From Eledone cirrhosa (Eukaryota): a stretch of DNA of 64,000 nucleotides. The translations under genes and the position numbers were made by a program. Of the stretch, positions 2,325 through 64,000 are shown piece after piece. The DNA is taken from assembly GCA_964016885.1 (NCBI GenBank), contig OZ024742.1, forward strand, positions 185,380,001-185,444,000, given 5' to 3'. The notes beneath the pieces are model-generated. The model did not search any database. It was not told the DNA's origin and saw only the letters and a list, made by a program, of their open reading frames with translations. How positions within the stretch are numbered: position 1 is the first letter of the stretch; every line of letters starts with the position of its first letter.

Positions 2325-2473
2325 TCATTATTTAACGATCGTTTCTAGGATATATATGTGTTAGAATTGGCATGCATATTCAACAGATCTATGTACAAAA
2401 TTATACAAAATTATACAAACTATCAAGATTAAATATACATACCAAACACATATGCCGTCTTCAGAAATAATGA
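2325..2473 (-). ncRNA. Hammerhead ribozyme in the inverted pLTR
   Basis: Reverse complement of 8456-8608. Confidence 0.8.
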
Positions 2474-2572
2474 AATATATTTATTGATAATAACAACAAT
2501 TCAAAATTTCAGGTCCGTTTGGGAACGGAGTTCAAAATTGACCAATGAAAATACAAAAAGTTTTATACAAGC

Positions 2573-4868
2573 AGATCGGAAATATATGTATGATTTCAAT
2601 ACTTACAAGAATCCACCACACAACTTTTTACTTGAAGACTTCGAGAAAGACCTTTTTAATTTAATTAAACACCTCAAATTTAAAAAGTATAAATCCGTCT
2701 TTCAAAAGGACCTTGATTCTACCCTATTGGACCTAAAAAAGTCTAAAAAAATCCATGTCCACTCGGACAAAACTGGTAACTTGTATCACATGGATATTGA
2801 ACATTATAATGAGTTCATATATAAAGAACTCAGAAAAAATTATAAAAAATCTAATAATGCGTCACTCACCAACATCAACAACAAAACACACAACATAGTA
2901 AAAAAACTAAACATTGAAGATAGAACTGAACCTTTGGCATTGAAAAGACCACACTTCAACCTGAAGGATCATAAATCAAACTTTAACTCAAATCCTTCTA
3001 TAAGACTTATATGTCCCTCCAAATCAGATATTGGAATAATTAGCAAAAACATTTTGGATAGAGTCATCCCACAAATAAGAAAACACGTTATTTTACCACT
3101 CTGGGAAAACACCTCCCAGGTAATTAACTGGTTTAAAAATATTAGATGTAAATCTTCTGCTTCATTTCTACAATTTGATATAGATAATTACTATTCTTCT
3201 ATATCACCTATACTCCTGAACAAAGCATTGATATTTGCTAAAAATAGATCTAACTTAACTTTGGATGACATTAATATTATTACACATGCTAGACTAACAC
3301 TTATTGAATTTCAGAATGAATACTGGACCAGAAACACATATAGTAATCTATTTGATATTACTATGGGTTCAAGCGATTCCGCCCAAATTACTGATCTTGT
3401 GGGCCTCTTTCTCCTTTTCAACATAAATGCCTCCTTTCCCCACCTTAAAGGTGGTTTATATCGTGATGACTGTCTTCTTCTTTCTAACAACCTTAGCCTT
3501 TCAGAAATAGAAAAAAACAAAAAAACATATTAGAACTTTCCTTAAAGACTATTATAATCTTCATATTACTTTTGAAAAAACAAGTAGAGTAGTAAATTTC
3601 CTAGATATAACTTTAGATTTAGCTACGGGTATCTACCAACCTTACCATAAACCAAACCAAAACTTACATTACATACACTCACAATCTAATCACCCTAAAT
3701 CTATCCTTAAAAACCTTGCATATAATATATCACTTAGAATTTCTAAACCTTTCTTCTAACCAAGATGTATTTGATAAAAATGCGACCTTCTATAACGAAG
3801 CTCTAGATAGAAGTGGCCACAAAAATAGATTAGAATATATACCTTCTACTAAAAATACTAAAAGCATACAACCTAATATTACCAACAAACACCAAATGAA
3901 AAGTACACACCTAAATGCCACCCACACTATACCCCAAAATACCAAATCTTCTAATATAAAAATATAGTAACTCTCAAAAAACTACTCATCATACAACTCT
4001 AATAAATATTAATAATAAAACTCCTAATAAAAAAGATAAAACACCTAAATCTACAAATATAACTAAAAATGGTTGTGGTGAGATCATTAACATTAATCCT
4101 CCTAGTAAACATCACGATACAACCTATAAAAATAATAAAAATAATAAACAACATAGAAACCGTAATAGACGGGTTACTTGGTATAATGCTCCATTTAATT
4201 TACAAATTAAGGATAATATTGCTAAAAAATTTTTTTATATCCTAGAGAAAAACTTCCCGCCAAACCACAAATACCATCAAATCTTAAATAGGTCTACAGT
4301 TAAATTCTCATACTCAACAATAAATAACATAAAACAAAATATAAGTGCCTATAATGCATATAAATGTAAGAAAACCATAAGTATACCACCAATACATCAA
4401 ATTAACCATAATATCTCCTCAAATACAGAATTAACGAAAGGTTGTAACTGTAGAAACAAAGCAAACTGCCCATTAAAAGGGAATTGTCTTGTTAACAACA
4501 TAGTCTATAAATGTAATGTTAAAACTAAAGATTCTATTTGCTCATATATAGGAGCTACTTCTAACAATTTTAAGACAAGGTTTAATACCCACAAGCATAG
4601 TTTTAAAAATGCCGCACTGGCTAATACAACATCTCTAGCAGAAAAAATCAATAGTTATAAAAATAAGAATATAGAATATGATTTGACCTGGAGTGTGCTC
4701 AAAAGAGCCACCCCTTATCAAAATAATAGAAATGAATGTAGATTATGTTCCCAAGAACTATTTGAAATAATGAAATCTAAGGATATCCTATTAAATAAAC
4801 GACAGGAATTAATTATATCGTGTAATCATAAACTAAAAAAAACATTTAAATATTATAAACCTAATTAA
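2573..4868 (+). pseudogene. PLE RT-GIY-YIG polyprotein with frameshifts (~3520, ~3748, ~3958)
   Basis: Motifs FLQFDIDNYY, ITMGSSDSAQ, GLYRDD, VNFLDITLDL, VTWYNAPFN, CNCRNKANCPLKGNCL, IVYKC..SYIG, CRLCSQE, LLNKRQE..SCNH. The first ~30 aa of the listed ORF 2484 come from the inverted pLTR. Confidence 0.92.
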
Positions 4869-8880: not shown

Positions 8881-9024
8881 TGTATATAAGCACCTCAGTT
8901 ACATATTTCTTTGTGGTTGTGTAGAAGATATACATACTTTAGATGAGAGCGGTTCGTGAATCAATTCAAGATATTTTCCATGTTTTCAATATATATATGT
9001 GTGTACATATATATATATATATAT

Positions 9025-10668
9025 ATTTAATACAATAACAGAGATAGTTTAAAGCTAAACTCTGACTGGTAACCATCTCACTCAACAAACATTAGGTTAT
9101 ATTAAAATATAAACCCTATTTAAGTGTTTGGGGTGCTAACAATATGTATAATGTGGAAAAACCAGTTGTATTATTTTATGAGATATAATTAAAGTTAAAG
9201 TATATCTCTCTTTCCAAACAATTGTTTCATTATAAGTTTTCTACAAGTTTGGGAGAATGTTTCCAGTTTATGTAGAAGCCTAATATATATTCATGTAAGA
9301 GTATATTTAGGTGGGCACTTATAAATCATCAGTGGAAGCCCATTAAACATTGAAATAAGAAAACAATTTCTTACCGCTGTCAAAAATCATGTCCGTAAAG
9401 TTGCTCTCTCTCACCTCGAATGACCGCCAAATTTGAAATTCCAGCAGTTTTTGACTGAGGAAGTATCATAGCGACACGAAGCGGGAAGGGGAGACAACCC
9501 ACGATCCACGAAAGGAGGAAAAAAAATAATATACACGCGGGTTAATTAGTTTTTTTGAAAACATTATCAATCCAACGTGTTTAAGAACTCAATTGAAAAT
9601 AAAAAAATAAGTATATGCTTGTATAAATTACACATGCATATAGATATTTTCTTAGGCTAAATCAGAAGTTGTACCCGAATAAGAACCGCTTCTCATAACC
9701 GCAGTAAATGCAGAAAGTTATGCTATAAAGGGCAAATGGGAATATAATTCTCCGGCCGAATTATTAAGAGTAAAATATAAAACACACGCGGGTTACTTAG
9801 TTATTTCAAAACCAATATTAATTCCTCGTGTAAAGAACTCAATTAATAAAAGAAAATAAATACATATATGCATGTAATTATATACGTAGGCATATATATA
9901 TATTTTCCTAGACTAAAAAGCAGAGAAGTTACAACCAAAAAAAGCCACAATATTTCACAACAGTAATAAATACGGAAAGTCAAATTCATAAGGTACCTGG
10001 AAATAAACACCTCTGGCCAATCAAGAGTAAATATTTAATACAATAACAGAGATAGTTTAAAGCTAAACTCTGACTGGTAACCATCTCACTCAACAAACAT
10101 TAGGTTATATTAAAATATAAACCCAATTTAAGTGTTTGGGGTGCTAACAATATGTATAATGTGGAAAAACCAGTTGTATTATTTTATGAGATATAATTAA
10201 AGTTAAAGTATATCTCTCTTTCCAAACAATTGTTTCATTATAAGTTTTCTACAAGTTTGGGAGAATGTTTCCAGTTTATGTAGAAGCCTAATATATATTC
10301 ATGTAAGAGTATATTTAGGTGGGCACTTATAAATCATCAGTGGAAGCCCATTAAACATTGAAATAAGAAAACAATTTCTTACCGCTGTCAAAAATCATGT
10401 CCGTAAAGTTGCTCTCTCTCACCTCGAATGATCGCCAAATTTGAAATTCCAGCAGTTTTTGACTGAGGAAGTATCATAGCGACACGAAGCGGGAAGGGGA
10501 GACAACCCACGATCCACGAAATGAGGAAAAAAAATATAATATACACGCGGGTTAATTAGTTTTTTTGAAAACATTATCAATCCAACGTGTTTAAGAACTC
10601 AATTGAAAATAAAAAAATAAATATATGCTTGTATAAATTACACACGCATATAGATATTTTCTTAGGCT
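9025..10668 (-). mobile_element. Tandem copies (1008-bp period) of a (TA)n-inserted HHR-bearing element
   Basis: 9025-9658 is nearly identical to 10033-10668; internal degenerate ~250-bp repeat (9531-9780 / 9781-10036); homologous to 15010-15535 and 28491-28880. Confidence 0.85.
9212..9337 (-). ncRNA. Hammerhead with branched stem II (second copy at 10220-10345)
   Basis: UUCCA-CUGAUGA-UUUAUAAGU...ACUUAUAAU-GAAA-CAAUUG-UU-UGGAA. Confidence 0.85.
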
Positions 10669-14973: not shown

Positions 14974-15009
<36 letters not shown>

Positions 15010-15171
15010 CATTATCGGAGAAAGCTTTTAGCGATACTCCGGCCAAATTCCAGCTCACTCAACAAACATTAGGAAATAAGTGAGTATATTCCTGTTCGGG
15101 GTGCTAACTAAATGTATTATGTGGAAAATTGGCCGTATTATTTCATATGAGACATATCGAATATATCTCTT

Positions 15172-15297
15172 CCCAGACGGACGTCTCGTTTCATTATAAG
15201 ATTCCTACAATTTGGGTGAAATTATACCAATTTATGTAGGAGCTTGTATAGGATCAACAGATAATATTCATGTGGGCTCTTATAATTCATCAGTGGG
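15172..15297 (-). ncRNA. Hammerhead with branched stem II (in element ~15010-15535)
   Basis: CCCA-CUGAUGA-AUUAUAAGA...UCUUAUAAU-GAAA-CG(agacguc)CG-UC-UGGG. Confidence 0.85.
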
Positions 15298-15544
15298 TGC
15301 CCAATAATACTAATATTGATAATCTAACCAATATCAGTATTTAGCGATAATCACCATCAGTGCTTGAGGTATCTGTTAGGTTGCTACTCCAGCAGTTCTA
15401 AAGAAATACTCAAACTGATTCAAAAGTGAGGAAGTAAATTACCGCCAAAAAAACAATACATGCGCAGGACAATGAATTCTAAAAGGAATTCAGGCCACGT
15501 GCTAGAACTCAATTGTAATTTGAAAAAATATCCATATATATATA

Positions 15545-27545: not shown

Positions 27546-28593
27546 TAGAGAATGTTTAAACAGGTAATTAAAATCCTAGTCTTCAGAACATTTATATACA
27601 TACATAACTATTGCCAGTGTCATTGACATCATATAGAAAAGCAGGAGTTTCAAAGGAATGTTATGCTACAGAAAACACAGTATAAGGAGCAATGGTGAAA
27701 AGTGAAATATTGAGCATATTATATATAAAGATATTGTTTAAGGTAATACATGTGCAAAAGATACAAGCAAAAAAGATGTAAGATAAGATAGATAAAAGAT
27801 ATAGCATTGAAAAGCAGGTAATGTTAAGGGTATATAATGCAAAAGTTAATAAAATTAATAAAGGCATGCATGAGGTAAAAGTTATATAATAAGTGAAACA
27901 AGCATATTTCATATAGAATGTTAAAGCATGTTAAAAGTGTAAGAAATGTTTAACATTTTTTTAAATGGCATGCAATATCGTAGAGAGATATGTGGTGATA
28001 AAATGGATAGAAGTTATGTAAAGTATAATGCAGAAAACGTAATTAAATTAGAATGGTAATTGTCATACAAGAATTTTTATATTGGATTTCGTATATAGAT
28101 GTATATATTGGGCGTAACACAAATGAATTAACCATGGAATTTTCTTAATTTTAGATGTAATGTGTTTGAGATGTGTATAGTTTTAAAATATGTGTTTGGT
28201 AACGATAAATTCCACTGTATTACTGGCCATGTTATTATAGGAAATATATTATACAATGCATTCCTATCCTTAAATTTTCTATTAAGAAATATTAGTTTGC
28301 TTTATGTGCGAGTTCTATTAATAGTTATTGGGCGAAGTCGGAAGTTGAGAAGTCGTTAAATTCTTTTTAACTGGCTAGTACTACCCTCCATATTTATAAT
28401 TATATATAAACCATATATAAGTATAAATATTATTATTATTACTATATATATATATATATATATATACAGATATATATACACATATATACATAGAACTGCT
28501 GGACTAACAACCTAGCAGCTCCCTCAAGCACTGATGGTGATTATCGCTAAATAGTGATGTTTATTTGGTTATCAATATTAATATTATTGGGCA

Positions 28594-28713
28594 CCCACTG
28601 AAGAATTATAAGAGCCCACTTGTATAAGTATCTGTTGATCTTATACAAGCTTCTACATTTGGTATAATTTCACCCAACTTGTAGAAATCTTATAATGAAA
28701 CGAGTCGTCTGGG
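28594..28713 (+). ncRNA. Hammerhead with 92-nt branched stem II (second copy at 30219-30338)
   Basis: CCCA-CUGAAGA-AUUAUAAGA-gccca-[CUUGUAUAAG..CUUAUACAAG]-[UUCUACA..UGUAGAA]-UCUUAUAAU-GAAA-CG(agu)CG-UC-UGGG. Confidence 0.88.
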
Positions 28714-28936
28714 AAGTGATATATTTGATATATCTCATATGAAATAATACAGCCAATTTTCCACACAATACAATTAGTTAGCACCCCGAACGTTTAATTA
28801 GGAATATACTCAGATATTTCCTAATGTTTCTTGAGTAAGTTGGAATTTGGCCGGAGTATCGCTATTAGCTTTCTCCGTTTATGTATTTATATATTTATAT
28901 ATATATACACGCATGGATATATACACTCACATGTAT

Positions 28937-30093: not shown

Positions 30094-30561
30094 ATATATA
30101 TATTGAGATTTTTTTTAGAACTGCTGGACTAACAACCTAGCAGCTCCCTCAAGCACTGATGGTGATTATCGCTAAATAGTGATGTTTATTTGGTTATCAA
30201 TATTAATATTATTGGGCACCCACTGAAGAATTATAAGAGCCCACTTGTATAAGTATCTGTTGATCTTATACAAGCTTCTACATTTGGTATAATTTCACCC
30301 AACTTGTAGAAATCTTATAATGAAACGAGTCGTCTGGGAAGTGATATATTTGATATATCTCATATGAAATAATACAGCCAATTTTCCACACAATACAATT
30401 AGTTAGCACCCCGAACGTTTAATTAGGAATATACTCAGATATTTCCTAATGTTTCTTGAGTAAGTTGGAATTTGGCCGGAGTATCGCTATTAGCTTTCTC
30501 CGTTTATGTATTTATATATTTATATATATATACACGCATGGATATATACACTCACATGTAT

Positions 30562-32101: not shown

Positions 32102-33177
32102 TTTCTTTAATACCTTATTTTTCACTCGTTTGTTAATTTGTGTTTGAGATAAGTTGGCTGAGTCCTGATGGCGGGAGCAGAACTATTTGAATTTCATCTC
32201 CTGCTGTCACGTACATTTCTGAAACGGTAGACAATCAGTTGACGGCCTTGTGAGGACGTGAAAGGATTTCAGTTTAATAAGCGGTTTTACTGTGTTGACC
32301 GTCACATTCACTGTCATAGCCGACACGGACTGGAATCGATTTCTGTCGATCGATTGGTTATTGATTTGGCGAAAACTGCCGATGAAGCCATATATGCCGA
32401 TTGTGCATTGTTGCATAATATATGCAGACAGTAGATACTGTGGCCTCTATTGCTGTATTCAGTGTGGCTGAAAGTACGGGTAGAGATTGGAGGTAGCCAT
32501 TTACATGTGTTGTATTGAAGCGAATAACCTTGTGTCTACTGTGGGATTTTACATAATTGTTTCTACGTTAGGCACAAGGCCAGCAATTACCCAGTGCATT
32601 ACTGGTACTTTATTTTATCGACCCCGTAAGGATGAAAGGCAAAGTCAACCTCGGCGGGATTTGAACTCAGATCGTAAAGGGACGTAACTATGCTGGAAAG
32701 CATGGCGTCTTTTACATAATATTACCTATTGAGTACGCTGAAATGCAACCGGTACTAACAGTGAAACCCATGCTAGTACTATGCTTATTATTATCATTAT
32801 TATTATTATCTTTTTACACGCATAAATGCCCATTTGTACCGCCCTGTATTGTCCTGTACTCTCCTTAATGTCTACTTTATGTAAACCCTTGTGGTTAATA
32901 AAGAAAGCATCATTATTATTATTATCATTGTTTTAATTGTTTTTTCATTGTTTTTTCATTGTTTCAATTTTTTCATTGTTTCAATTTTTTCATTGTTTCA
33001 ATTTTTTCATTGTTTAAATTTTTTTATATATATATATGTTTTATGTCTTTTTTCTTTTCTTATATAAATAATAAAAATATTTACACGCACAAAACCCACA
33101 TCGTACCGTCCTGTTCCGTCTGTGATGTTTTTCTTGATGTCAGCCCTTGTGGCCAATAAAGAAATCATTATTATTGG

Positions 33178-34135
33178 AGACTGGAATGTCTTCAGGCGCT
33201 CACAGCCCTCGACCAATCGGGCAATGTGATCGGTGGAAACTCCACCTCGGCGTTCTATAGAGGATTAGTGGAGGGGAAGAGCGACGACGTACTTGGGGAA
33301 ACTCTAGGCGTCGACGAAAATCAACTAGCCAATCTCTTCGGAAGAACTTTCGGGCCAAGGCCTATGGACAACTTCCAGAAATCTCTGGCCTGGCAGTGCT
33401 ACCGAGGAGCCTTGCCAGTTCGGGATAAACTCTACAGGCATGGAGGTGCCGTCAGCCGGGCATGTCCGAGATGCGCGCAGGGCGACGAAACCGTCCTGCA
33501 CGCACTCGTCCAGTGTCCGAAAATTGCTGACTTGTGGGTTTATGTCGAACACCTGCTGTCGCGTTTAGGACGGATCCGGCTATCATCTGAGTCCATCGTG
33601 AGGATTGCCCCGCCCTCCTCCTTTAGCCGGGAAGGGCAGGCAGTTTTTATCTGCCTGGTGGCCATGGTGAAAGAGATAGTATGGTGGACACGTTTGAAAG
33701 GGCTGAAGACGAGCACTTACCTCTTCGGTGATGCTCTGATTGACTTTTTCAAATTTCATTTGAAAAGGAAAATCAGAGTAGAGAGGGAAGTGCTCTCTTC
33801 CCAGCATTTTGTTGAAAGATGGGTGAGAGAAGCAAGAATGGCCCGAGTGAATGGGCCTACTCTGAGTATATATCTGTAAATTAAAGTTGGAAAACTGGGA
33901 GAGGGCACTTGCCTTGGTGGTCAGGGTCATTGTGGCTTTTTACTGGGCTTTCTCCACAAATGTCCCTCCGAAGTCTGCCCCCTATTGGGGAATTTTTCAT
34001 TGTTATTTTTTGTTACATCCTCTGTTTTTGTTTTTTACACGCAGAAATGCCCATTTGTACCGTCCTGCATTGTCCTGCACTGTCCTTAATGTCTACTTTA
34101 TGTAAACCCTTGTGGTTAATAAAGAAATCATTATT
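33178..34135 (+). mobile_element. L1/Tx1-like LINE 3' fragment (ORF2 C-terminus 33226-33879 with zf-RVT, 3'UTR, AATAAA, ATT tail)
   Basis: AWQCYRGALPVRDKL..CPRCAQGDETVLHALVQC..W; tail CCTTGTGGTTAATAAAGAAATCATTATT; extra 3' ends at ~32810-32930, 33080-33175 and 34205-34240. Confidence 0.85.
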
Positions 34136-48166: not shown

Positions 48167-49764
48167 ATATATAGACACAAACACACATCATTGTGTATTA
48201 CTATGGCTGATATGAGAAATTAATCAGTAATTTTTTATTGAAATATATAGTACTTCACTAAGAAGCAGAATACACTGTTTCTGTAAAAGTAGAAGTGGTG
48301 TTTCTACTAATATTTTCTACATTAACACACCACAAACAGAATAAAGTTATTTTTCCTGCTAAAACAAGAGTTAACCTTGTGAACTTAATGACAGGCTTTT
48401 TACTCATAACAGGGCTCTTTTTGAGTCAATATTTTATGCTTGGATGCCCAAGCTTTTGTTTGATGTACCAACACTTTTAGTCACCTTTCATGACATGCAG
48501 GGAAACTGTGTACCTATTGTAAACTGCATACACAGTAAAATATTTTCTACATTACATATATTATATTAGCTTTGTAGCAGGGAGTTACATATCACTTATT
48601 GAATTGCTTCACTTACACTATTAGTAGCTTTAGGAAACAGCATGTTTCCCTGTTTTCATATTCTTTTCAAGTACAAGTTTTTTCTACATATTGCTAGGTA
48701 TCCAACTACATCCCTTTCATGGTTATATTTCTAATAAAATACACTATGTTTCAATTAACTTTGAAAATAACCAAATATTTGGAGGAACTCAATAAAATAA
48801 CTAACTTAGTAAGTTCATATTTAGCATATTACAAACATTTCTAAAATAAAATGATGATGGAAGGTTTTAATATAAGGAAAAACATTTATAAATGAGGAGT
48901 TTTGTATCATTATTTCGAGGTGGTCTCAGATGGTTTGGTATGAAAGGCTATATAAAGTACTGTATCAATTATGGTACTTTTCAGTGTAGAATTGAAATCA
49001 GATTGGACTTAATTTTTGTATTTAATGTGTCTAATATGCATAAATAATAGTTTCTGATATAGGCACAAGGCCAACAACGTTGTTGTAGTAGCAATGTGGC
49101 AACACCCCTAACATATTGTTATTACTCTGAGCTATAATTTATTGATATCACCTCATTGAGGGCTTTGTGCCAGCCTCAGAAGATTGATTTCAAAAAATGC
49201 TAATCGCGGCTGCAACTTTGATTTTACTCACTATTATATATATATATATATATATGTATACATATATATATATATACATATATATCATCATCATCATCAT
49301 CATCATATATATATATATACATATATATCATCATCATCATCATCATATATATATATATATACATATATATCATCATCATCATCATCATATATATATATAT
49401 ATATCATATATATATATGATGATTTTTTTTTTTTTTAATATAAGGAACTGTTTCTTTGTTTATTCATTATTTTATTAATTTATCTTGACTCTGTTTTCCG
49501 TTTATTTTTCACCGAAAGTAGTTTTTGAATGCATCTTCTCTTTTCATGATATCCGGATTACATTGAGTTCTTCTTACGGATTGGACACTACCGTAAACTT
49601 TTGGTAGATTTATCTACATACTTTGCTCCTATTTTCATGGGGATATTCTTATTTTTATATTGTATGTGTATATATATTTATATATATATACATATATGTG
49701 TATAACTTTATAACTCCATATACAAATAGTTGAGCTCTTTTTCTTGTCCATTATCCATATCACA

Positions 49765-52198
49765 ATGGAAAAACAATACTTGGGAACTTCTTTAAAGAAT
49801 ATACCATTACCTTCTAAGGATGATTTCTTACTTCTTATGATACAAAAAACCAACCAATTTATCAGAAGAATCAGATGGAGGGCCTACCACTTCGATAAAA
49901 AAACAAAATGTACTGATAGGAAATATTTGTATGATTTCACTACATATAAAAATCCACCACACAACTCCTTACTTGAAAACTTTGAGAAAGACCTTTTTAA
50001 TTTAATCAAACACCTCAAATTTAAGAGGTATAAATCTAATTTTCAAAAGGACCTTGATTCTACCCTATTGGACCTAAAAAAATCTAAAAAAATCCATGTC
50101 CACTCGGACAAAACTGGAAATCTATATCACATGGATATTGAAAATTACAATGAGTTCATATATAAAGAACTCAGGAAAAATTATAGAAAAACAAATAATG
50201 CGTCACTTACCAACATCAACAACAAAACACACAATATAGTGAATAGACTTAATATTGAAGATAGAACTGAACCTTTGGCATTGAAAAGACCACATTTCAA
50301 CCTGAAAGATCATAAATCTAACTTTAACTCTAATCCTTCCAAATCTGATATTGGAATAATTAGTAAAATAATTTTAGATAGAGTCATCCCACAACTAAGA
50401 AAACATGTTAACTTACCACTCTGGGAAAACACATCCCAGGTAATTAACTGGTTTAATAATATTAGAAATAAATCCTCTGCTTCATTTCTACAATTTGATA
50501 TAGATAATTATTATTATTCTATATCACCTATACTCCTGAACAAAGCCTTGATATTTGCTAAAAATAGATCTAACTTAACTTTGGATGACATTAATATTAT
50601 TACACATGCTAGACTAACACTATTGGAATTTCAGAATGAATACTGGACCAGAAACACATATAGTAATCTATTCGATATTACTATGGGCTCAAGCGATTCT
50701 GCCCAAATTACTGATCTTGTGGGCCTCTTTCTTCTTTTTAACATAAATGCTTCTTTTCCCCACCTTAAATGTGGTTTATATCGTGACGACTGTCTTCTTC
50801 TTTCCAATAACCTTAGCCTCTCAGAGATAGAAAAAAATAAAAAGCTTATTAGAACTTTCCTCAAAGACTATTATAGTCTAGATATTACATTTGAAAACAC
50901 AAGTAAAGTAGTTAATTTCCTAGATATAACATTAGACTTATCTACGGGTATCTACCAACCTTACCATAAACCCAACCAAAATTTACACTACATACACTCA
51001 CAATCTAATCACCCTAAATCTATCCTTAAAAACCTTGCATATAATATATCACTTAGAATTTCTAACCTTTCGTCTAACCAAGATGTATTTGATAAAAATG
51101 CGACCTTTTATAACGAAGCTCTAGCTAGAAGTGGCCACAAAAATAGATTAGTATATATACCTTCTACCAATAACACTAGAGACATACAACCTAATATTAC
51201 CAACAAACACCAAATGAAACATACACACCTAAATGCCACTCACACTATACCCCAAAACACCAACATAAAACCAAATTTCTCTAACTCTTCTAATATACAG
51301 TATAGTAACTCTCAAAAAACTACTCATCCTACAACTCTAATAAATGTTAATAATAAAACTCCTAATAAACAAGCTAAAACACCTAAATCAATAAATCTAA
51401 CTAAAAATGTGTGTGGTGAGGTCATTAACAATAATTCTCTTAATAAACATCAGGATGCATCCTATAAAAACAATAAACAACATCGAAACCGTAATAGACG
51501 AGTTACTTGGTATAATGCTCCATTTAATTTACAAATTAAAGATAATGTACCTAAAAAATTCTTTAATATCCTAGAGAAAAACTTCCCGCCAAACCACAAA
51601 TACCATCAAATCTTAAATAGATCAACGGTTAAATTCTCCTACTCAACAACCAAAAACATAAAACAAAATATAAGTGCCTATAATGCATATACATGTAAAA
51701 AAAACCATGAGTATACCACCAGTACATCAAACTAACCATAATATCTCCTCAGATACAGGATTCACGAAAAGTTGTAACTGTAGAAACAAGGCAAACTGTC
51801 CATTAAAAGGAAATTGCCTTGTTAATAACATAGTATATAAATGTAAAGTTAACACTAAGGACTCAATTTATTCATATATAGGAGCTACCTCTAACAAATT
51901 TAAGGTAAGATTTAATACCCACAAACATAGTTTTTAAAATGCCGCACTAGCTAATACAACATCTCTAGCTGAAATAATAAATAGTTATAGAAAGAGGAAT
52001 ATAGAATATGACCTGACCTGGAGTGTGCTCAAAAGGGCCACCCCTTATCAAAATAGTAGAAATGAATGTAGATTATGTTCCCAAGAACTTTTTGAAATAA
52101 TGAAATCTAAGGATATCCTATTAAATAAGCGACAGGAATTAATAATATCGTGTAATCATAAACTGAGAAAAACCTTTAAATATTATAAACCTAATTAA
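49765..52198 (+). pseudogene. Near-intact PLE RT-GIY-YIG polyprotein (+1 frameshift in A-run ~51697-51703, TAA at 51935, 21-nt deletion ~50340)
   Basis: N-terminal SLKNIPLP..FIRRIRWRAYHF, RT FDID/MGS/GLYRDD, WYNAPF, CNCRNKANCPLKGNC, IVYKC..YIG, CRLC, LLNKRQE. Confidence 0.93.
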
Positions 52199-52628
52199 TA
52201 TACACTTTAGAAATTAATTTATAAATTATTTTTAATTTAGTTAACCTATAATTAATATTCTACTACTGATGAACTACATAATTCTGCTTTAAAAATTATA
52301 AACCTAATTAATATACACTTTAGAAATTAATATAATACTATTTTTAATTTAGTTAACCTATAATTAATATTCTACTACTGATGAACTACATAATTTTGCT
52401 TTCCTTCTTACAAATATCATTTCCTAAAACTGATACCATTAAGTAAACATATATAATGCTTTAACTTCAGGTTATGACTCTATGTTCCTTGAAAACTATA
52501 TATATTTACTATTTCTCACTAATAAATTTAATCCCCCCCCCCAATAATTATATGTATATATAAGTGTATATGTGTGTGTATATATATATGTGTATGTATG
52601 TATGTATGCATGTATGTATCTACGTATA

Positions 52629-54254: not shown

Positions 54255-56095
54255 AGCACTGCGATCGAATGTGGCTTTTTAGCCCAGCCAATGATCTAAA
54301 ATGTCTTGCACAGAGTCACCAACCAAAACATTCACTGGGAATAGTCGGCTGTGGTTGGAGTTCATGTACTTTTGCATGTCGCTTGAGCCCTCCTGCTGAT
54401 TTACACTCTCTACCACATGTTTGGCAAGCATGATGAGTAGCATCTCCAACAGCAGCCTGGTAGTCAACCACTGATCTTACTTTATGACTGCGAAGATGAC
54501 TTTCGAGTCCAGCTTTGCTTAGGCAGAGTCTCGCACAGACGCTGCATGTCAGCACCATAGGAGGACCCTCGCCGTCTGGAAGTGCAACAGCAATGCCCTT
54601 CCTCACATCCCGCTTTACTTTCTCGTATGCGATTCGAGATGCATCAAAGGCAACTTTTCCCTCATATACAGTCTTTCTCCATTTATTACGATCAGCAGCA
54701 ACATTTTCCCATGTATCAGCAGAGATGTTAGCGTCTTTCAAAGAGGCTTTCAATGAATCCTTATACCTCTTTTTTGGTTTATGTGGCGGTCGTTTTCCTT
54801 TAACCAACTCTCCATAAAAGAGTTGTTTTGGTATTCTAGAATCCTTCATCCTGGCAAGGTGACCACTCCAACGGAGTCGTTGCTTAAGCACAAGAGCTTC
54901 TATACTTCTATACACATAGAGCTTTCCAAAATCTCGACATCACTGATGTGGTCGCTCCAGTGAACGCCATGGATCCGTCTGAGACACAACTGATGGAAAC
55001 GCTCCAATTGCTTAAGGTGGTGTCGATATGTGACCCAGGTCTCGTAGGCATAAAGAAGACAAGAGAGCACACATGCCGTGTACACCATTACCTTTGTATT
55101 CCTGCATATGTCTCGCCGACCCCAGAGTCGCCTTTCTAGCTTTCCGAAAGCATCACTTGCTTTCCTAATCCTAAGTGAAATTTCACTGTCAAGGTTGCTG
55201 TATCGATTGACAGTGCTTCCCAGATAGACAAACTGATCAACCACTCCAAGTCGTTTACCATACACATAGATATTTGGTTCAGTGTACTGCTTACCAGGGA
55301 CAGGTTGGTACATGACGACGGTTTTCTTGAGACTGACAGTCAATCCTAGGGCACTGCAAGCGTCAGAAAATGCATTCAAAATGTGCTGCATATCAATCTC
55401 TGTGTGCGCTACAAGATCGCAATCATCTGCATACAAGAGGTCTCTTATGATTGATGTAAATACTTTTGTCTTTGCAGCAAAGCGCCTGATCTTAAATATG
55501 CTGCCTGAGGTTCGATATCGGATGTAAACACCATGCTCGCAATTCCTGAATGCAATACAGAAAACCATTGCAAAGTATATAGCAAACAGGGTCGGTGCTG
55601 GAATATCCCCCTGTTTCACTCCATTTTTTACTGAGATAGGCTCCGACATTAACCCAAGCCTTCATATCGTCATGGAAAGACCTAACTAAAGCAAGGAACT
55701 TATCAGGGCAACCAAGTTTCTGGAGAACCTTCCATAATGCGTCTCTGTTAACAGTATCGAAAGCTTTTGTCAGATCGACAAAAACCTGATACAGATCCAA
55801 ACCTTGTTCCATGCACTTCTCCTGGAGCTGTCTAGCTGAGAAGATCATATCAGTAGTGCCGCGTCCAGCACGAAAACCAGATTGACTTTCAGGAAGAACA
55901 CAATCTGCAATGTGTGTCAGCAGACGGTCCAGAAGCACCCTACATAAAACTTTCCCTATGACAGAAAGCAGTGATATACCTCTGTAGTGCCCACAATCAT
56001 TCCTGTTACCCTTTCCCTTGTACAAGACCACCATTACTGCATCTCTCCAGTCCTCAGGTACGGATTCATTAGCCCATATCCTTCCAAACAAAGAG
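54255..56095 (-). pseudogene. RTE-BovB-like LINE, 5'-truncated RT plus C-terminal zinc fingers (frameshifts ~55640, ~54905, ~54320)
   Basis: [53 protein letters not shown]2H2 motifs. Confidence 0.93.
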
Positions 56096-56261
56096 TGATA
56101 TATATATACACACATATGTACACACACATATGTACACACACATATATATACAAATATACATATATATTTATATACATATATGCACATATCTATGTATATA
56201 TGTATATATATATATATATATATACACAAATATACATATATATTATAAACATAAATACATA

Positions 56262-56327
<66 letters not shown>

Positions 56328-56430
56328 CCAATACTCTAACCACTAAGCCATCTATATATGTATGTATATAAATTTATATGTATGTATATATATATATATA
56401 CATATATATATGTATGTATATAAATATATG

Positions 56431-57233: not shown

Positions 57234-57689
57234 TACAGATATATTTATATACATACACATATATATGTCTATAAACACACACATATACATATGTTTATAT
57301 ACACACACATATTTATTTATATACACACACACATATGTATATATATAGTAATAATAATAAATGTGAAGACTAAAATCCAAAGAGGGCTCGATAAGGATAA
57401 ATATATATCAGATATATAAGAACACTAGAGCAAATATTTATTAAAATAACAGATTAAAGTTTAAGTAAAGAATCGTTGCTTTCACCCTTAACGGGATCTT
57501 ATATATAAGGAAAATAAGAAAAAAAGTAGAAAATGCTAATGGGATTTTCTAGAATAACAGCAAAACATTTTTTAAAAGTAATTTATCGTACTGGTTTCAG
57601 TCGATAGTTGTTTCGGCTTCTTCATGCTACAGGAAATATGATAAAATCAACTCGTGTGTCACTTTTCAACATTCTATATATATATGTGT

Positions 57690-57957
57690 AAATGAAGTAA
57701 TTCCGTCGGAAAAGGAAAAGTCCAGGAAAAAAGAGTGCTCTATGTAGGTAACAGAGCTTAATAGTTATGTAATAAACAACACAAGGCAATTATTCCATTT
57801 ACCAGTGGTTTCTTAAAAGCAAAAGATTTTGCTTTCAATCCTCAGAATGACCAGGATTTTTTTCATTCTGAGGATTGAAAGCAAAATCTTTAGCTTTTAA
57901 GAAACCACTGGTAAATGGAATAATTGCCTTATGTTGTTTATTACATAACTAATTTCT
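57690..57957. mobile_element. Fold-back PLE terminus with two complete hammerheads (+57862-57919, -57794-57850)
   Basis: UUCAUU-CUGAGGA-UUGAAAGC(..)GCUUUUAA-GAAA-CC(acu)GG-UA-AAUGGA. Confidence 0.85.
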
Positions 57958-62559: not shown

Positions 62560-63248
62560 TGTGCGTGTGTGTGTGTGTGTGATGGTAAACGACAATGATT
62601 ATATATATATATATATGAAAAGATTCAGGACGCCGACGGCTGAGCTCCGGCTGCATCAACAGCTAGATCCAAACACTTCGGATCTAGCTGTCGAAACAGC
62701 CGGAGCAATCAAGAATATTATGGGGGTTGTATTGGTAAAGTATTTTTTATATATATTTGTATGATTTGCGTTTCCTGGATTATGAGAATGGTGGTGTATG
62801 CGAGGACCGTGGCGTTGTTTTGCTTCTCACTTTTAATATTTTTGATATTTCTCTACACACAGGCTTCTATATCATACATATATATATAAAAAATACTTTA
62901 CCAATACAACCCCTATAATACTCTTGATTGCCCGCTTAAACTGCTTGTATTACATATAACACCCTGCCGCACTATATTCTTATATAAATAAGACACACGT
63001 TCATGCCCCACATGTAACTATTGCATACACTAACTACTTCAAACTATCCTCTTGCTTTATCTTCGTAAACTGCCAATGTTGTATTTTAACTTTAATTTTG
63101 TCCTTTAATATGACTTCAATCTTTGTATGTAAATTGCCATGCTATATTGTTATAATGGATGTCAACCCACTGTGCGTCAATATATACATGTTTCTATATG
63201 TCTCTTGTGTTGGAAAGGAGGTCAAGTATGTAAAAAATCATTGAAAAA

Positions 63249-63297
63249 TTGCTCCGAAGACTCCAAACCTCGGTTTGGAAGAAACAATTGTAAGCGA
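63249..63297 (+). ncRNA. Hammerhead-like motif with CCGAAGA core (element ~62706-63390 with inverted 5' part)
   Basis: UUGCU-CCGAAGA-cUCCAAACC(uc)GGUUUGGAa-GAAA-CAAUUG-UA-AGCGA. Confidence 0.72.
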
Positions 63298-64000
63298 ATA
63301 AATGGTTTAAACAGAACTTTGATTCATGTAATTTCTATATATATATATATATTATTCAACGCCCGTTGTAGCTGCATTTATATAATGTAGATATATATAA
63401 TTGTCTCCACTTTTGGCACAAAGCCAGCAATTATCCCAGTGTATTACTGGTACTTTATTTTATCGACCCCGTAAGGATGAAAGGCAAACTTAACCTCAGT
63501 TGAACTCAGAATAGCAAGGGCCGTAACTCTATGCTCCAAAGCATGGCGTCCGACCTCTACCGATACTGCCAATCCACCGCTAATCCCGCCGAGGTTAACT
63601 TTGCCTTTCATCCTTTCGGGGTCGATAAAATAAAGTACCAGTAATGCACTGGAATAATTGCTGGCCTTGTGCCAAAACTAGAAACAATTATTAAGTTGCA
63701 AGTTAGTTATTTCATAAAAATTCTCATAATTCTTGATTACACCGGTAATTAAACTACAAAAGATGTATGTTGTTGTTAGAAATATGGCTACAAAAGGTTA
63801 AATGATGTTTCTTATTCGGGACTAGATGTCAGACTCTGGCAGGTTTTGACATGAAAGATATGATCTCAGAACTACTGACAAATGAAACAGCTTGTTATGT
63901 ACATATTGTACCAGTCATATACACAGTATTTCAGTTATTTGCAATACTAAACCATATTCACTCATACTACCTATTTATAAATTTGTCTATTTTTTATTTA

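Follow-up and report, generated by a model that had tools for sequence, protein, structure and literature searches.

The window (the whole 64,000-nt stretch of Eledone cirrhosa DNA analysed here) carries type I hammerhead motifs in which stem II opens into a three-way junction with two daughter hairpins, and this branch is well supported by covariation among copies of the family. On balance, we favour the prediction that the motif is a type I hammerhead with a branched stem II, belongs to a non-autonomous repeat resembling Penelope-like elements (PLEs), cleaves in pairs and is likely braced by a 4-bp pseudoknot.

The branched hammerhead and its copies

A complete type I hammerhead core was identified at 28594-28713 on the forward strand, with its blocks in the order CUGANGA, GAAA and NUH and with stem II opening into the three-way junction; helices I, II and III surround this core, helix I being open, and each of the three contains pairs that change on both sides. 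The full core, the helices and the compensatory changes bear out the hammerhead identity that had been proposed for this stretch in a first-pass annotation, and the type I assignment is supported. The block order is C-G-S and not the S-G-C order by which the type-SGC (non-circularly permuted) hammerhead is defined (PMC10085705). A branched stem II of 92 nt with two daughter hairpins had also been described, and its coordinates were confirmed at 28605-28696. The features of this copy, which is 5'-truncated and whose second daughter hairpin is 3 nt shorter than that of its family, are as follows (coordinates in the window).

28588-28592 (+): 5' strand of the candidate pseudoknot, UGGGC; GGGC is kept, the first base is U or C
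28594-28597 (+): stem I 5' strand, CCCA
28598-28604 (+): catalytic core, C3 to A9, CUGAAGA
28605-28613 (+): stem II 5' strand, 9 bp; the 10.1-11.1 pair is A-U in this copy, while other subfamilies have U-U or G-C
28614-28618 (+): junction strand GCCCA, the 3' strand of the proposed pseudoknot
28619-28649 (+): daughter hairpin IIa, 10 bp; two-sided changes in 5 pairs
28651-28686 (+): daughter hairpin IIb, 7 bp and an internal loop; 3-nt deletion in this copy
28661-28674 (+): distal 3-bp helix of IIb; A-U/U-A change
28688-28696 (+): stem II 3' strand
28697-28709 (+): GAAA core (28697-28700), palindromic helix III and GUC; predicted cut after 28709
28710-28713 (+): stem I 3' strand, UGGG
28718-28734 (+): hairpin immediately 3' of stem I, predicted in several subfamilies

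When both strands were scanned with a descriptor, seven type I hammerheads were detected in the window, five of which have a stem II interior of 92-97 nt, with core starts at 28598 and 30223 (+) and at 15293, 10340 and 9332 (-). These five oversized copies, among which all of the previously noted three diverged variants (28594/30219 +, 15172 -, 9212/10220 -) were located, represent three independent insertions: the copies at 28598 and 30223 lie inside a local duplication of ~860 bp with 98.8% identity, and those at 9332 and 10340 are consecutive units of one partial tandem with a period of 1008 nt. A covariance model of the family scored the five copies at 133-147 bits, three of them being training rows, and gave no other match above 25 bits in the window. 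The copies of the repeat are listed below.

9024-10664 (-): subfamily C units of 1008 nt in a partial tandem; the two hammerheads span 10350-10220 and 9342-9212
14997-15400 (-): subfamily B copy, truncated; its hammerhead spans 15303-15172
28492-28891 (+): subfamily A copy of the non-coding repeat, 5'-truncated relative to the 695-nt full unit; flanked by (TA)-rich microsatellites
30116-30515 (+): duplicate of the truncated subfamily A copy; a local duplication and no independent insertion

Two other sites in the window are recorded here as separate observations: an inverted, back-to-back pair of type I hammerheads, each with a stem II of 26 nt, lies at 57800-57913, and a small hammerhead-like motif at 63241-63300 (+) has a palindromic helix III and reads CCGAAGA instead of CUGAAGA.

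Across the genome, a pattern combining the core and stem II gave 2,298 exact matches compared with 0 for the reversed control, and a chance origin of the motif is therefore excluded. A pattern scan of metagenomes returned 23 matches, none with stem II and all judged to be chance.

The secondary structure was analyzed in an alignment of 26 intact copies, hand-picked from 145 distinct ones. RNAalifold recovered helices I, II (8 of 9 pairs), IIa, IIb and III unprompted, including the three-way junction. Pairing was found in 95.1% of 1,065 alignment cells, compared with 34-49% in slid controls, and the covariation score was 0.231 versus 0.121 for shuffled and 0.04-0.07 for slid alignments, both covariation controls ignoring the relatedness of the rows; the number of further pair types was not above the shuffle (27 observed, 28.9 shuffled). 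Twelve of the 41 pairs changed on both sides, namely 1/4 in stem I, 3/9 in stem II, 5/10 in IIa, 1/7 in IIb, 1/3 in the distal IIb helix, which the first-pass annotation had not mentioned, and 1/3 in helix III. Every compensatory change listed by the first-pass annotation for stem I, stem II and the daughter helix proved to be real in this alignment, where stem I has U-A in 17 copies and C-G in 9, the last pair of stem II is A-U in 11, U-A in 9 and G-U in 5, and the second daughter has U-A in 23 and C-G in 2. The 10.1-11.1 pair is A-U, G-C, G-U or unpaired (mostly U-U), so that 13 of 26 rows have no standard pair there; U10.1-U11.1 is a known tolerated hammerhead variant. Except for N7 and H17, the core was invariant in all 26 rows, a figure biased by the core patterns with which the rows were found. 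Covariation had been claimed in general terms for the whole architecture; it holds for the stem II branch and the nested helices, but not for the pseudoknot, in which 0 of 5 pairs changed on both sides.

The proposed GGGC:GCCC helix

Each of the five window copies contains both UGGGC and GCCCA. UGGGC had been presented as complementary to an invariant GCCCA in all copies; in the 26-copy alignment the fifth pair varies (U-A in 19 copies, U-G in 2 and unpaired in 5, one of the latter being a misaligned row), and the conserved helix is therefore one of 4 bp. The stem I and stem II regions are complementary over at least 4 bp, with 94.6% of cells paired, and column identity was 0.81-1.0 in both strands compared with 0.46-0.65 in the adjoining flank. 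One subfamily retains GGGC despite a 1-nt insertion in the linker; two recurring variants, GGGU with GCCC and UGGGC with GCCCG, are both G-U compatible; and the fifth pair is C-A in some of the D subfamilies. The matching stretch takes in the junction strand and no more. The probability of a chance 4-bp match to GCCCA in the 12-nt flank is 0.016; that of a 5-bp match to any loop segment is 0.16, and the choice of the partner after the fact thus weakens the former value. An alternative knot between GGG and the CCCA of IIb was rejected, as it comprises 7 bp in one subfamily only and another subfamily has CCG at that site. Judging from the aligned sequences, we consider it likely that the GGGC:GCCC helix forms.

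At least 2,956 genome copies matched an exact pattern with both GGGC and GCCC intact, and the inner C's were changed in just 79 and 73 copies, of which 2/79 and 1/73, counted by eye, were compensated. For 87 GGGU copies, the partner was G in 77, A in 6 and U in 4; the 6/87 with A compare with ~5.5% A in GGGC copies (Fisher p 0.46), a background estimated from slightly different patterns. GGGU accompanied ACCCA in 3 among the first 100 of 195 copies. Covariation of the pseudoknot was thus absent from the 26 copies, and compensated mutants occurred genome-wide at background. Because most pseudoknot mutants arose after insertion, mutant counts can reveal only an amplified compensated subfamily, and the genome-wide mutant patterns contained none with a compensated GGGC:GCCC change.

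A stem II of 9 bp combined with a stem I of 4-5 bp is the reverse of the canonical 6/4 arrangement. In a crude parallel-helix model, calibrated on the canonical 6/4 arrangement independently of crystal coordinates, the pseudoknot needs a reach of 22-36 Å (minimum to median) and 18-36 Å is on offer, so that the modelled geometry appears marginal. In nested folding, the GGGC:GCCC helix and stems I and II were near-equal competitors. The earlier proposal that this pseudoknot replaces the usual stem I-stem II contact is favoured by conservation and complementarity but not by covariation; it is plausible but unproven, and from the sequences we would give an activating pseudoknot an even chance.

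Alternatively, GGGC:GCCC may be a brake that forms first and excludes stems I and II, keeping a monomer or circle off unless it is refolded by a protein or by a second ribozyme. This is possible, although we consider it unlikely. The nested-fold probability of the helix exceeded 0.5 in 12 of 26 copies, two competing folds lay within 4 kcal/mol in 22 of 26, GGGC and GCCC emerge in transcription ~75-95 nt before the 3' strands that complete stem II and stem I, and a true knot is geometrically marginal in the crude helix model. Near-equal energies are, however, no proof of exclusion, since nested programs cannot score pseudoknots, and the helix has no consistent extension into stem I or II across subfamilies. 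A brake would also fit the many insertions that cross two hammerheads, from which it follows that templates are often uncut or circular. A precedent may be the sCYDV-RPV hammerhead, whose pseudoknot slows cleavage. This hammerhead reportedly needs a double hammerhead and an alternative structure (title of Song et al. 1999). Its helix I is 4 bp and its helix II is long (PMC1636495).

It is somewhat more doubtful that GGGC and GCCC stay unpaired, being kept for a protein contact, as a DNA motif or by ancestry, in an ordinary low-activity PLE dimer whose branch is a scaffold. Compensatory change is indeed absent in ~3,000 copies, the IIb internal loop is also near-invariant (0.96-1.0) without a partner, no tertiary contact is known for the minimal hammerheads of PLEs (PMC4209133), and no G-C knot like GGGC:GCCC was seen by eye in the other families with a long stem II (see below). 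Nevertheless, two conserved complementary strings composed of G and C only, in an element of 33% GC and at the sites of known hammerhead pseudoknots, argue for pairing, as do subfamily variants that are mostly wobble-compatible.

The host repeat and predicted cleavage in pairs

The motif resides in a non-coding, structured repeat of head-to-tail units with (TA)n at its end, in a (TA)n-rich genome of 3.0 Gb. Thirteen cut-to-cut units measured 695-1010 nt, with one type I hammerhead each and a GC content of 31-34%; five representative subfamily units showed pairwise identities of 62-89% and, when folded as circles, MFE z values of -4.6 to -9.5 (12 shuffles each). The 3' end of the element is fixed, ~300 nt downstream of the core and ~185 nt beyond the cut site, and is followed by (TA)n; the 5' ends of copies are ragged, and many copies are partial tandems. 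Insertions spanning two hammerheads, together with a 3' end ~185 nt past the cut, would fit priming within a circular or uncut template. For a 20-mer close to the 3' end, 6,937 genome copies were counted, and no upstream ORF was listed for 30/30 of its loci. In the loci scanned, ORF scans of the flanks found no PLE ORF joined to the unit and no placement of the motif in the pLTR of an ORF-bearing PLE; PLE ORFs near repeat copies were beyond microsatellites or differed from locus to locus. A tRNA-derived head was found in 0 of 6 loci, and in contigs from three sequencing runs of one sample the repeat was seen just as DNA-like contigs. The insertion anatomy is PLE-like (partial tandem, fixed 3' end, ragged 5' end and microsatellite target), and the repeat is very probably a non-autonomous Penelope-like element. 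By analogy, its anatomy is that of a non-autonomous PLE or a non-LTR retrozyme (PMC4209133, PMC7229834, bioRxiv 10.64898/2026.07.22.740005).

Some features of single subfamilies were also observed. The ~1000-nt unit of subfamily C (e.g. L066) has an internal duplication of ~250 nt relative to the 743-nt D unit. Subfamilies C and D have a strong splice-donor-like GGTAAGA ~45 nt before the core (window 10384-10376 and 9376-9368, -), which is absent from subfamilies A and B; daughter IIb has a conserved pyrimidine-rich TGTAG, and splicing from GGTAAGA to this TGTAG would delete half of the core. An intron within stem II was rejected, as no GT donor within the stem is conserved in this family.

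Of the 26 copies, 22 have a self-complementary helix III, which is loopless in 17, and the remaining four have 1-3 mismatches or an internal palindrome; the palindrome is kept across AAUU/GAUC/GGCC exchanges. Its trans duplex was estimated at -8.8 to -16.1 kcal/mol, compared with about 0 as a monomer. The first-pass annotation had remarked that loop III differs among the variants (AGU, AGACGUC, AAUU); the sequences do vary, but the main feature, the palindromic helix III, had been overlooked. Because a mostly loopless palindrome cannot fully close within a single molecule, two ribozymes are most likely required for cleavage, and we predict dimer cleavage with good confidence. PLE hammerheads have been described as dimer-acting because of their palindromic helix III (PMC4209133).

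After 3 of 75 rows running off the locus had been dropped, 5' ends were within 3 nt of the cut site in 2/72 copies and within -3 to +20 in 12/72, the excess falling in an AT-rich hairpin that resembles the insertion target; among ribozyme-selected loci, the 5' end was near the cut site in 1/130. That the motif is a non-cutting relic, spread by read-through transcription with a fold kept only for RT binding, would agree with this lack of sharp 5' ends, with the poor in vitro cleavage of PLE hammerheads (PMC4209133) and with the rows having no standard 10.1-11.1 pair, but is highly improbable given that the core outside N7 and H17 is invariant in units diverging by up to 38% (with the bias in row choice stated above) and that the helix III palindrome is upheld by covariation. 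Hammerhead cutting in the source elements is predicted, and we hold it to be very likely.

Two broken Penelope ORFs in the window (49714-52190 and 2433-4865, +) combine an RT with a C-terminal GIY-YIG-type endonuclease and have Hydra-clade-like motifs, the RT motifs resembling Hydra proteins in File S4 of PMC8557442. Pfam gave no match for either ORF, and no full hammerhead was found 3' of them, only CTGATGA in a 112-nt tandem at 52174-52402. Hydra-clade PLEs favour (TA)n targets (PMC8557442). Because of this preference and the Hydra-like RT and endonuclease in the window, a Hydra RT would be the likeliest helper, though unproven, and by analogy the Hydra clade is our best guess for the source of a borrowed RT. 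No autonomous partner of the repeat was found among flank ORFs, by BLAST, with the covariance model or through consensus motifs: the best unrelated score among 33 loci was 23.5 bits, one 77-bit match being a partial family copy, and in the Naiad/Hydra consensus files of Craig et al. six and then two short motifs of the repeat were absent as such.

Other elements were noted around the copies. An abundant non-coding, (TA)n-inserted family with CAGAAGA and GAAA boxes occurs in the flanks of L058, L080, L147 and L154 and in the window (- strand, ~57430-57470); the last 36 nt of the repeat are 81% alike to the end of that family, and a helper RT common to both is possible. Penelope-type RT ORFs, Neptune-like by their motifs, lie just downstream of repeat copies, past (TA)n (L014:428-1546 and L015:1-849, both -), and are likely neighbours with a common target. 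Fragments resembling ORFs of non-LTR retrotransposons are present at 54319-56373 (-) and 33160-33876 (+) in the window.

According to the preferred reading, a braced hammerhead cleaving in pairs, a transcript longer than one unit would bring two motifs together, the palindromic helix III strands would pair across them, and each motif would cut after GUH. The cut monomer would be circularised, and a borrowed Penelope RT/GIY-YIG protein would prime at a nick in (TA)n, ~185 nt beyond the cut, and copy round the circle. At its weakest steps, the scheme supposes that GGGC would pair with GCCC early in transcription and remain paired, and that this helix, standing in for the usual loop-loop contact, would link stem I with the stem II domain. 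The family offers a way into what PLE hammerheads do and why they are poor cleavers, according to whether the helix is a brace or a brake. If the knot were dispensable, the motif would be a structural curiosity within a known class. It is an improbable further idea that the Y-shaped domain and GGGC:GCCC form a gate, probably read by a retroelement protein, that times dimer cleavage in an oversized class overlooked in this lineage; if true, the motif would be a natural, animal, allosterically controlled hammerhead.

Comparison with known hammerheads and retroelements

Hammerhead searches presume a short stem II. As had been claimed, the motif escapes standard descriptors: an Rfam search of 28500-28880 gave no hammerhead match at E up to 10, no hammerhead was among the best 150 of 319 matches over the window, which consisted of microsatellite and hairpin noise, and three loci with G-C or U-U at 10.1 gave 0 matches. 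The core search in PMC8557442 allowed spacers of 7-17 nt, half cores at 35-50 nt being remarked upon, and the PLE motifs in File S2 of that paper have a loop 2 of up to ~35 nt. With a core and a 70-100-nt spacer, we obtained 2,419 genome matches versus 33 for the control, and the counts of animal retroelement ribozymes may therefore be too low. Among the first 30 loci and 20 further ones were sister subfamilies carrying G10.1-C11.1, together with no fewer than five unrelated families, whose stem II domains span 80-100 nt (loci L122-L150 and L292-L311); one of these (L139, L293, L296) folds with three daughter hairpins and others are long irregular hairpins. Three long-stem-II families are located 3' of Penelope ORFs (L130/L150, L299 and L302), the L299 endonuclease sharing 34% identity with the ORF at 3960-4865 in the window (E 3e-40), and local BLAST detected no homology between these ORF-linked families and the present one. 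An extended stem I in L139 and L123 was rejected as the product of an inverted insertion.

Penelope hammerheads and stem I-stem II pseudoknots are already published; the motif with the branched stem II is an architectural variant of the PLE-type hammerhead. A full-text literature search found no three-way stem II in an animal retroelement hammerhead, although survey supplements may hold one. The minimal or atypical type I hammerheads of metazoan PLEs (PMC4209133) resemble the Eledone family in a helix I of 4-5 bp, a longer helix II and a palindromic helix III, all published traits, and in their numerous dispersed truncated copies, dimers being implied. They differ in a helix II of 7-8 bp with a small loop, compared with 9 bp and a three-way domain of ~75 nt here; most Eledone subfamilies lack the extra base between 9 and 10.1; and no tertiary contact is defined for them, whereas the Eledone family has a candidate pseudoknot. 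Hydra-clade PLE hammerheads (Craig et al. 2021, PMC8557442) share the (TA)n preference, a type I motif near the 3' end and a short palindromic helix III, but the Hydra motifs listed there have a stem II of 3-7 bp and loops of 3-10 nt.

Metazoan non-LTR retrozymes (PMC7229834; bioRxiv 10.64898/2026.07.22.740005) likewise consist of non-coding, low-GC, structured tandem units, reaching 972 bp, with one type I hammerhead per unit and a proposed PLE origin. Those tested have canonical-size hammerheads and circular RNA, whereas the Eledone repeat has an oversized hammerhead, is known from DNA alone and forms arrays that are partial tandems ending in (TA)n.

The first-pass annotation knew of no description of the architecture; a stem I-stem II pseudoknot as such is not new, given the precedents in PMC3088659 and PMC7936874. 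A helix between these stems was predicted in ~40% of hammerheads and among all three types (PMC3088659), and a GCCR:YGGC pseudoknot has been described in a hammerhead whose helix I has 5 bp and whose helix II has 6 bp (PMC7936874); among the toad, termite and Drosophila type III motifs of the latter study, GCCR:YGGC occurs in the termite/toad group, as in Eledone. As proposed for the present family, pseudoknot-braced hammerheads (PMC3088659, PMC7936874, PMC11300833) have their stem I and stem II regions joined by Watson-Crick pairing. In the cases compared, however, the partner is a terminal loop II or a helix II substitute with stems of 1-6 bp, whereas here it would be a junction strand above 9 bp. 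The sCYDV-RPV (+) hammerhead (PMC1636495, PMC7936874) resembles the Eledone motif in its 4-bp helix I, atypically long helix II and pseudoknot (a candidate one in Eledone) and in cleaving as a double hammerhead, as is predicted in Eledone, but is of type III, belongs to a plant satellite RNA and has an unbranched helix II (5+4+4 bp).
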